Made by a program: the position numbers and the translations under genes
The notes under the pieces: generated by a model
What the model was told of the DNA's origin: nothing
Databases searched by the model: none
The model's input: only the letters and a program-made list of their open reading frames with translations
NCBI GenBank assembly: GCA_020723205.1
Contig: DYJF01000005.1
Location: 1 to 59,023 of the forward strand
Reading direction: 5' to 3'
From: Bdellovibrio sp.
GTDB taxonomy: Bacteria > UBA10199 > 2-02-FULL-44-16 > DYJF01
Length of the DNA stretch: 59,023 bases
In this document: positions 32,437 through 58,761 of the stretch, in pieces
How positions within the stretch are numbered: the stretch's first letter is position 1
Layout: every line of letters starts with the position of its first letter

Positions 32437-34032
<1,596 letters not shown>

Positions 34033-41230: not shown

Positions 41231-41259
41231 AAAAAGGCCCGGCGATAAGCCGGGCCTTT
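41231..41259. terminator. Bidirectional terminator between mtgA and the histone gene
   Basis: aaaaaggcccggc gataa gccgggccttt. Confidence 0.85.
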
Positions 41260-41276: not shown

Positions 41277-41456
41277 TTAGATGTCGCGGTCCTTGATCGT
41301 CTGACGGCCGTTGTCCTTCGCGCGCTCTGCGGCCTTGTCCAAAAGTTCCTTCACCGCATCGGAGAGAGCTTCCACTGCCGTTTCGGACGTCTGCAGACCC
41401 TTCTCTTTCACGTACTCTTTTACCTTCGATACGACGACCAGAATTTCCTTCGCCAT
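41277..41456 (-). CDS. Bacterial histone-fold protein, Bdellovibrio Bd0055/HBb-like, 59 aa (absent from ORF track)
   Basis: Manual translation MAKEILVVVSKVKEYVKEKGLQTSETAVEALSDAVKELLDKAAERAKDNGRQTIKDRDI. Has the LVVxSKVK start and the histone-fold R-x-T-I-x-x-R-D end, an AAGGAGG RBS, a promoter and a terminator. Confidence 0.9.
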   Translation of the reverse strand: MAKEILVVVSKVKEYVKEKGLQTSETAVEALSDAVKELLDKAAERAKDNGRQTIKDRDI

Positions 41457-41501
41457 GGCTGCCTCCTTATATTAAAAGGTTTATATTCAATAAGCCGACG
41501 G

Positions 41502-41530
41502 ATTGTGTTTAACGGCCCCTAAATTGTCAA
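41502..41530 (-). promoter_or_regulatory. Sigma70-type promoter of the histone gene
   Basis: TTGACA-N17-CACAAT. Confidence 0.6.
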
Positions 41531-41561
41531 ACAAAAAATTCGCACTTTAAGGGCAGTTTCG

Positions 41562-41693: not shown

Positions 41694-41700
41694 CAGAAAA

Positions 41701-41782
41701 GCAGTCGTAAGTTCTAAGTCGTAAGTCTTAAGAAGAGTTTTTTCCTTGATTCTCTGCTCTTACGACTTAAAACTTACGACTG
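41701..41782. repeat. Inverted pair of 7-bp tandem arrays between the tRNAs
   Basis: agtcgta agttcta agtcgta agtctta ... tacgact taaaact tacgact. Confidence 0.8.
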
Positions 41783-41789
41783 TATTACT

Positions 41790-41862
41790 GTCCCCATCGT
41801 CTAGAGGCCCAGGACACCGCCCTTTCACGGCGGCGGCGGGGGTTCGAATCCCCCTGGGGACG
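41790..41862 (+). tRNA. tRNA-Glu(UUC), CCA not encoded
   Basis: gtcccca/tggggac acceptor, ccgcc-CTTTCAC-ggcgg anticodon arm, GGTTCGAATC T arm. Confidence 0.95.
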
Positions 41863-42101
41863 CAAGGGTTTGAGTAGGACTTAATGTCCTACTCAAACCC
41901 TTCAGTTTTTGGGATGAGAACCGGTGCCGCAAGGCGCCTTGTTCTGACCGAGCGCGGGGACCCAAACGAAGTTTGGGTGCGCGAGGAAATACCCGAAGCG
42001 CGACAGCGCGAAGGGTGGAATCCCCCTGGGGACGCAGACAGGAATTCACGACACCGCAAGGTGTTGGGAATTCCTGTTTAAATTTCGGGGGTGAGAACCG
42101 G
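41846..42101 (+). repeat. tRNA-linked repeat: 19-bp tRNA 3' end duplicated, each copy followed by a hairpin and GGG(A/G)TGAGAACCGG
   Basis: gaatccccctggggacgca at 41846-41864 and 42018-42036; hairpins at 41864-41902 and 42038-42077; motifs at 41911 and 42088. Confidence 0.85.
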
Positions 42102-42164: not shown

Positions 42165-42512
42165 ATGGTGACTAAAGCCGAACGCAAAAAGAAAGTGAAC
42201 TGTTGGGAATTTATGAGGTGTGGCAGAGAGCCGGGCGGGGTAAATGCCAGCGAGCTCGGCGTTTGTCCCGCCGCTATCTGCAAAGAAGCGGACGGAATTC
42301 ATGGCGGAATCAATGCCGGACGATGTTGTTGGGTAGTGGCCGGCACCTTTTGTAAGGGCGATATTCAGGGATCATTTGCAAAGAAGATACATGATTGTTT
42401 GGCATGCCCGTTCCATTGCAATGTTATTAATGAGGAGGATGGTGAATATGGTGAAGGTTTCATGCAGTACAAGGAAATTTTTGAGGTGATAAAAAAACGA
42501 TCCAAGGGTTGA
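42165..42512 (+). CDS. Stand-alone two-CW domain, Cys-rich protein
   Basis: NCWEFMRCGRE..CPA..HGG.NAGRCCWVVAGTFC..CLACPF. Confidence 0.8.
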   Translation: MVTKAERKKKVNCWEFMRCGREPGGVNASELGVCPAAICKEADGIHGGINAGRCCWVVAGTFCKGDIQGSFAKKIHDCLACPFHCNVINEEDGEYGEGFMQYKEIFEVIKKRSKG

Positions 42513-58452: not shown

Positions 58453-58761
58453 TCAGGTCTGCGGCGGCTTCTCTTCCTTATGTTCCACTTGATCCACCCG
58501 TTCCCTCAACTCTTTTCCTACCTTGAAGAACGGGAGCTTTTTCGGACTGACCTGTATGGACTCCCCCGTTCTCGGATTTCTTCCAGTGTAGGCCCCGTAT
58601 TCTTTAACGACAAAACTCCCGAGACCCCTGATCTCGATCCTGTCGCCCTTTACCATGGCATCCACCATGATGTCGAAGATCAGGTTCACTACGTCCTCTG
58701 CACGTTTCTTAGTGATCTTCGTCTTCTCCGCGATCATTTCAACCAGCTCGGATTTGTTCAT
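58453..58761 (-). CDS. Integration host factor beta-like / HU family protein
   Basis: MNKSEL, RIEIRGLGSF, GRNPRTGE, FKVGKELRERV. Confidence 0.9.
   Translation of the reverse strand: MNKSELVEMIAEKTKITKKRAEDVVNLIFDIMVDAMVKGDRIEIRGLGSFVVKEYGAYTGRNPRTGESIQVSPKKLPFFKVGKELRERVDQVEHKEEKPPQT

Follow-up and report, generated by a model that had tools for sequence, protein, structure and literature searches.

Across the 59,023-nt contig DYJF01000005.1, which was analysed at its full length and is called the window below, one 59-codon frame had been proposed from the sequence alone to be an unannotated histone gene of the Bdellovibrio Bd0055/Leptospira class. Two histones of that kind act differently on DNA, one bending it as a dimer and the other wrapping it as a tetramer. 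The locus therefore raises the question of whether so short a frame is a gene and, if so, which kind of histone it encodes.

A short, slowly evolving gene

The proposed frame was found intact from start to stop:

41277..41456, minus strand: histone gene with an ATG start, 59 codons and a TAA stop

Its length proves nothing alone, because 40 ORFs of 30 aa or longer occur in the 3 kb around it and 59 aa is not above chance. A word-indexed search returned 106 homologues, which were 63-98% identical to the protein and in 93 cases had exactly its length of 59 aa. In a genome of the same genus, the protein was 100% identical and the coding sequence matched at 155 of 177 bases, the 22 differences all being synonymous (dN 0, dS 0.97). 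Among 17 orthologues of 59 codons, the median dN/dS was 0.077; the calculation used 59 of 136 pairs, the others having been dropped for saturated dS. These comparisons indicate that the gene is under strong purifying selection and evolves very slowly. Together with the expression signals described in the next section, the homologues, the identical same-genus protein and the low dN/dS identify the ORF as a real gene.

The description "unannotated" held for the ORF track only, since homologues have been called publicly: among the 106, 15 carry the JGI name "histone H3/H4" and 10 the NCBI name "hypothetical protein". Two members, from a "CG07_land" MAG and from "RIFCSPHIGHO2_02_FULL_44_16", are listed by Hocher et al. 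2023 (supplementary files 8 and 10), so the family is already catalogued. A literature search on UBA10199 and histone returned nothing, and no text discussing the family was found in it. The terms "UBA10199", "Myxococcota_A" and "Deltaproteobacteria bacterium" did not occur in three of the text supplements that accompany Schwab et al. 2024.

Conserved expression signals beside a tRNA pair

We located the following features around the gene:

41462..41468, minus strand: Shine-Dalgarno sequence AAGGAGG, 5 nt ahead of the ATG
41502..41530, minus strand: promoter-like site of sigma-70 type, TTGACA-17 nt-CACAAT
41531..41542, minus strand: T-rich tract immediately ahead of the -35 hexamer, a possible UP-like element
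41233..41259, minus strand: intrinsic terminator with an 11-bp stem (8 G-C pairs), a 5-nt loop and a T run, starting 18 nt past the stop codon
41621..41694, plus strand: tRNA-Lys(UUU), divergent from the histone gene
41790..41863, plus strand: tRNA-Glu(UUC), second gene of the tRNA pair, also divergent

An own sigma70-like promoter, an AAGGAGG ribosome-binding site, a terminator and a divergent tRNA pair had all been claimed for this locus, and each was recovered. When orthologous loci were compared, the Shine-Dalgarno site was present in 20/20 and a hairpin with a T run in 19/20. A TTGAC[AT] hexamer lay 53-75 nt before the ATG, likewise in 19/20, and in most of those 19 loci it was preceded by a T run. 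The -10 hexamer was weak and variable across the loci, with 3-5 of 6 positions matching. The 1.2-kb region contained five promoter-like sites, as compared with 0.8 +/- 0.8 in shuffled sequences. With its own conserved promoter, strong ribosome site and terminator, the histone is probably made in quantity. A search of sequencing runs gave one DNA run from which this DNA may come, the other matches having small shares; two of these were RNA runs with 0.04 of the locus words, possibly derived from the tRNA genes.

Of 16 loci from the same order, 13 have tRNA-Lys upstream of the histone gene, 12 have tRNA-Glu with it, and 11 have the pair in divergent orientation; outside the order, the pair was present in 0 of 3 loci. 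On its other side, the histone gene is followed by a convergent transglycosylase gene, which is preceded by a dCTP deaminase gene.

The tRNA pair has features of its own. The 95-nt spacer between tRNA-Lys and tRNA-Glu (41695-41789) forms an imperfect palindrome, whose 24-nt arms lie at 41702-41725 and 41759-41782. It looks like an insertion, since just 7 nt separate the tRNA genes in the same-genus genome. Related copies or arms occur at G000:C78:20284-20368 and at G000:C70:33231-33254 and 33635-33658. A hairpin with a 17-bp stem and a T run directly after tRNA-Glu (41864-41902, plus strand) is likely the terminator of the pair. Just beyond lies a Cys-rich ORF of 115 aa (42165-42512, plus strand) with no Pfam match at E <= 1e-5, and three more ORFs between 42640 and 44308 gave no Pfam match either. 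The histone itself is 15% Lys (9 of 59 residues) and 12% Glu (7 of 59), and its conserved upstream neighbours are tRNAs for the same two amino acids; this may be a coincidence or may reflect a shared highly expressed locus.

An alpha3-truncated histone fold

A phmmer search against solved structures matched the window protein to HBb/Bd0055 (8fvx, 8cmp; E 4.8e-10, 42.2 bits), HLp (9qt0; 1.3e-9, 40.8 bits) and HTkC (9f2c; 4.8e-5). The AF2 model built from a 43-sequence family alignment had a pLDDT of 92.4, with helix 1 at residues 9-17, helix 2 at 25-48 and one helical turn at 56-58. In Foldseek, which had been suggested as a check of the histone fold, the top ranks were taken by the same three proteins at TM 0.84-0.92: HLp 9qt0 (TM 0.88/0.92), HBb 9ezz and 8fvx, and HTkC 9f2c. 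Archaeal and eukaryotic histones followed at about 0.55-0.7, with HMfB at just 0.62/0.55.

Curated family models ranked histones at the top in both Pfam and NCBIfam, although none of the scores reached its cut-off: CBFD_NFYB_HMF (PF00808) scored 19.8 against 21.4 bits, Histone (PF00125) 18.9 against 26.4, DUF1931 (PF09123) 18.9 against 21.8, and the NCBIfam model archaea_histone (NF043032) 25.5 against 50. Such scores may explain the NCBI label "hypothetical protein".

Alpha3-truncated histones are described as having a helix 3 of only 3-4 residues and a helix 2 shorter than that of nucleosomal histones (Schwab et al. 2024). The window protein has the histone fold, ends at residue 59 after the turn at 56-58, and aligns in helix 2 without gaps to HLp and HBb. 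The R-x-T-x4-D motif, comprising the RD clamp and the loop-2 Thr, is present as R51, T53 and D58, which are invariant in the 43 sequences. The motif resemblance to Bd0055 and the Leptospira histone on which the original prediction rested agreed residue by residue. Its remark that this copy ends right after RDI, with a minimal helix 3, was correct as an observation, but the trait is no peculiarity of this copy: a short helix 3 defines alpha3-truncated histones, and an end one residue past the Asp (D+1) is typical of face-to-face (FtF) histones. The protein is tailless, has a mass of 6.6 kDa, a net charge of 0 and a calculated pI of 6.2, and charges in the family range from 0 to +4. We conclude that it is a bacterial histone of an already described kind.

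A tetramer signature with exact spacing

Within alpha3-truncated histones, the published accounts distinguish two bacterial groups (PMC11390915; PMC12701072; PMC10627809; bioRxiv 2025.12.06.692711). The "bacterial dimers", such as HBb, are reported to bend DNA as dimers and to be without the profile residues R48 and N52 (PMC11390915); membership of this category was set by CLANS clustering of sequences. FtF histones, such as HLp and the archaeal HTkC, are reported to form closed DNA-wrapping tetramers, which take up about 60 bp in the case of HLp (PMC12701072). The FtF family was defined by its predicted tetramer, with confirmation reported for HTkC and HLp, and its published profile positions are R48, N52, R54, T56 and D61. 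The HLp counterparts are given as R49, N53, R55, D62 and the C-terminal F63, of which R49, N53 and R55 pack against the C-terminal turn at the dimer-dimer interface (PMC12701072). For HTkC, a salt bridge is described that links R45 to the C-terminal carboxylate opposite, and the R45A variant is reported to yield dimers. Placing the window protein in one "Bd0055/Leptospira class" was thus right as far as a histone is concerned, but it merged two subfamilies, the DNA-bending dimer of HBb and the DNA-wrapping tetramer of HLp.

Our preferred reading, to which we assign a probability of roughly 0.62, is that the window protein is a tetramer-forming, DNA-wrapping FtF alpha3-truncated histone. The main rival, a DNA-bending dimer like HBb, we regard as unlikely though worth serious attention, and most of the comparisons below bear on these two readings.

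The window protein carries R45-x3-N49-x-R51-x-T53-x4-D58 followed by the C-terminal I59, which reproduces the FtF spacing exactly in an ungapped alignment. All 43 family sequences have R45, N49, R51, T53 and D58 and end one residue past D58. Absence of R48/N52 is the reported mark of bacterial dimers, whereas here both residues are present and invariant, which argues against a dimer of the HBb type. We refer to sequences with this residue pair as R/N. The end of the chain points the same way. Among the best 150 of 702 library representatives, 144 carry R-x-T-x4-D; in these, R/N went with a D+1 end in 53 representatives against 6, and other residue pairs went with longer ends in 77 against 8. 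The D+1 end of the window protein therefore departs from the longer ends of 77/85 non-R/N representatives in this set. Loop 1 also has no extra residue: the window protein shows a spacing of 41, as do 27 of 33 R/N singlets, and a spacing of 42 was found in 21 of 28 non-R/N singlets. Tandem doublets of the alpha3 fold, 115-270 aa long, are common among the best library representatives (P0108-P0133 and others), and some have R/N in both halves.

Profile comparisons were divided. The profile of the window family scored HLp at 78.7 bits and HBb at 61.8, favouring HLp by 17 bits; control profiles built from R/N sequences gave 91.1 for HLp and 63 for HBb, and those from non-R/N sequences gave 95 for HBb and 61.8 for HLp. 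When the window protein was instead scored on the group profiles, the non-R/N profile was as high as the R/N profile (96.0 vs 96.6; 150 vs 156 by hhalign), which favours an HBb-like protein as much as an FtF histone. The HBb-like reading is further supported by the single-sequence search, in which HBb was the best solved match (42.2 bits, 49-50% identity), and by helix 1, the "TS" loop and the "DRDI" end, all of which resemble the non-R/N consensus. A basic N-terminal tail is said to be common in bacterial FtF histones, and the near-neutral, tailless window protein is in this respect also closer to the dimer reading.

Phylogenetic trees were built from fewer than 60 columns (58-59) and are unrooted, with most forks unresolved. 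In an IQ-TREE analysis of 92 sequences from the phylum, the 44 non-R/N sequences formed one clade (99/97) beside the R/N sequences of the window's own order. In a FastTree analysis of 154 sequences, the R/N label needed one change, and three once the motif, loop-1 and C-end columns had been removed; without these columns, the own-order clade (support 82) stood at the border of the two groups. This position next to the HBb-type group again suits a dimer. Because the nesting of the non-R/N sequences lacks a root and depends in part on the motif columns, we claim no direction of evolution. These findings indicate that, away from the signature, the family is about equally like both subfamilies in sequence and is not clearly FtF over its whole length.

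Comparison with characterized relatives

The characterized bacterial FtF alpha3 histone is HLp of Leptospira perolatii, as reported with PDB entries 9QT0-9QT2 (PMC12701072). The window protein shares its fold with the one-turn helix 3 (rmsd 1.0 A) and aligns to it without gaps, so that R45, N49 and R51 correspond to HLp R49, N53 and R55, and the RD clamp R51-D58 to R55-D62. Both proteins end one residue past the Asp, 6 of 9 HLp DNA-contact residues are identical in the window protein (S10, K11, K13, K17, T23 and T53), and HLp is the best match of the window family profile. The two differ in that identity is only 41%, and in that HLp is reported to have six or seven residues before the fold, unresolved in the crystals, whereas the window protein has no N-terminal tail and a net charge of 0. 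Their surroundings also differ: the reported neighbours of the HLp gene are SMC and methionine aminopeptidase, in contrast to tRNA-Lys/Glu and transglycosylase for the window gene, and HU and Dps are reported absent from Leptospira, whereas the window genome has IHF/HU-family genes.

HBb/Bd0055 of Bdellovibrio bacteriovorus (PDB 8FVX, 8CMP and 9EZZ) is described as an alpha3 histone of the "bacterial dimer" group (PMC10627809; PMC11390915). It has the highest pairwise identity to the window protein (49-50%) at TM 0.89-0.91, and the two have in common the helix 1 S-K motif, K11, K13, K17, the RD clamp and the "DRD" end. The Bdellovibrio histone is reported to coexist with HU, much as the window histone does with HU/IHF-family genes. 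In contrast, HBb has S and D at the positions of window R45 and N49, a loop 1 that is one residue longer, and residues past the aligned end. It is reported to be strictly a DNA-bending dimer (PMC10627809; PMC11390915), whereas the window protein has what appears from its sequence to be a tetramer signature.

The archaeal FtF histone HTkC of Thermococcus kodakarensis (PDB 9F2C) is, like the window protein, 59 aa long and tailless, and its R45 aligns to window R45 (TM 0.86/0.87). It differs in its identity of 38-39%, a loop 1 that is two residues longer, an E at the position of N49, and its archaeal setting, where it is reported to coexist with nucleosomal histones.

A predicted four-copy assembly

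Structure prediction with four copies gave a score of 0.88, as compared with 0.06 for the best of three controls. Of 30 proteins solved as one-chain pairs, 20 reached that mark, as did 1 of 23 solved as single chains. Contacts agreed between runs in at least 100%, with a partner pLDDT of 91. In the model, the scored copy makes a complete histone-fold dimer with one neighbour and meets a third copy at the latter's residues 44-45, 48-49, 55 and 57-58; among the six residues named for the HLp interface, four (R49, S52, N53 and T61) have their counterparts at positions 45, 48, 49 and 57. This FtF-type contact argues against an HBb-like dimer. The result shows likeness and may come from the memory of the model, because the HLp and HTkC tetramers had already been solved.

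Distribution in the phylum and other nucleoid proteins

A histone match (E <= 0.001) was found in 72 of 93 genomes of the phylum, which looks like UBA10199 of GTDB, all 93 belonging to one class, and in 53 of 63 high-quality genomes. From 71 of these genomes we retrieved 92 histone ORFs: the R/N type stood alone in 28 genomes and the non-R/N type in 23, and the two occurred together in 20, with the reservation that distant copies may have been missed in this count because P0001 was the sole query. In the window's own order, all 17 genomes with a full ORF had only the R/N type with a D+1 end. The window assembly (1.75 Mb, 85 contigs, 83% complete) contained one histone copy, and searches of it with a non-R/N profile and with PF09123 recovered only the 41277-41456 locus; a second copy may lie in the missing part of the genome. 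Relatives came from MAGs labelled "Deltaproteobacteria bacterium", "Pseudomonadota bacterium" or "bacterium", and further ones at 56-58% identity from Planctomycetota-labelled MAGs and one at 50% from a Nanoarchaeota-labelled MAG.

In genomes from other families of the phylum (loci L092-L097, L099, L100, L103 and L104), the non-R/N fold lies at the C-terminus of frames of 164-183 aa. The N-terminal part of L103 is Cys/His-rich and resembles the published description of "ZZ histones". A Pfam search of these long N-extended paralogues found no ZZ domain match, only a weak zf-FLZ match.

The window genome encodes three proteins of the IHF/HU family:

58495-58761 of the window, minus strand: IHF-beta-like gene, PF00216 at 110.5 bits, NCBIfam IHF-beta at 107.8 against a cut-off of 115
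G000:C31:8306-8575: IHF-alpha gene, 142.8 bits, over the cut-off
G000:C74:14118-14378: HU-like gene of the IHF/HU family

Given these genes, the histone is not the sole nucleoid protein and need not be the main one. The lineage resembles Bdellovibrio, with a histone and HU, and is unlike Leptospira, reported to have a histone without HU.

The same three genes give some ground for a reading in which the histone-fold protein is scarce or specialised, acting for example in local regulation, under stress or at a particular stage, instead of belonging to general chromatin. The net charge of 0 fits such a role, and Schwab et al. are reported to warn that prokaryotic histone-fold proteins need not all be global organisers. 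We nevertheless consider this improbable. Kept in 72/93 genomes and evolving very slowly, this monocistronic gene has a -35 hexamer and a T tract that are conserved, as are its strong Shine-Dalgarno site and its terminator. High expression is moreover reported for all of the characterized relatives, namely HBb, HTkC and the histone of L. interrogans.

Finally, we rejected the notion that the frame is an unexpressed chance ORF or pseudogene, a chance we put close to nil: its 59 codons and its Pfam and NCBIfam scores under the curated cut-offs are outweighed by 106 homologues of mostly equal length, a confidently predicted histone fold, purifying selection (an unchanged same-genus protein despite 22 synonymous differences, with the low median dN/dS) and conserved start and stop signals.

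Proposed mode of action

If the window protein is a tetramer-forming FtF histone, two chains would form the usual head-to-tail histone-fold dimer, and two such dimers would close into a ring tetramer in which R45, N49 and R51 face the opposing C-terminal turn and its free carboxylate (R57-D58-I59). On the rim, DNA would be contacted by helix 1 (S10-K11, K13 and K17), loop 1 (T23) and loop 2 (T53). By analogy with the measurements on HLp, each tetramer would wrap about 60 bp without sequence preference. The protein would serve as a general nucleoid protein alongside IHF and the HU-like protein. This nucleoid-associated role is putative and is based on the relatives and on the conserved strong expression signals. 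Histone-based chromatin in this lineage, as the original prediction had it, is likewise putative.

Meaning for bacterial chromatin

Work on bacterial histones has so far covered just two cultured lineages, Bdellovibrio with HBb and Leptospira with its own histones. The window gene leaves today's view of bacterial chromatin unchanged. What it adds is a tailless histone with a tetramer signature, kept nearly unchanged and with its strong expression signals conserved across an order of an uncultured phylum with small genomes. At 59 residues the protein is easy to make, and it could test the rule linking R/N and the C-terminus to tetramers outside Leptospira and archaea.

Both histone types occur in one phylum, which offers material on the origin of the dimeric type. 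A more speculative thought, and one we think rather unlikely to hold, is that the clade is a living intermediate between the two bacterial alpha3 types, having the FtF residues and C-terminus on a sequence that is otherwise equally near the HBb type and FtF histones, and that its histone is a core chromatin protein of the whole phylum. If the dimeric type arose from a tetrameric ancestor through loss of R/N, a one-residue insertion in loop 1 and an extension of the C-terminus, the phylum would present a natural series from a wrapping to a bending histone.
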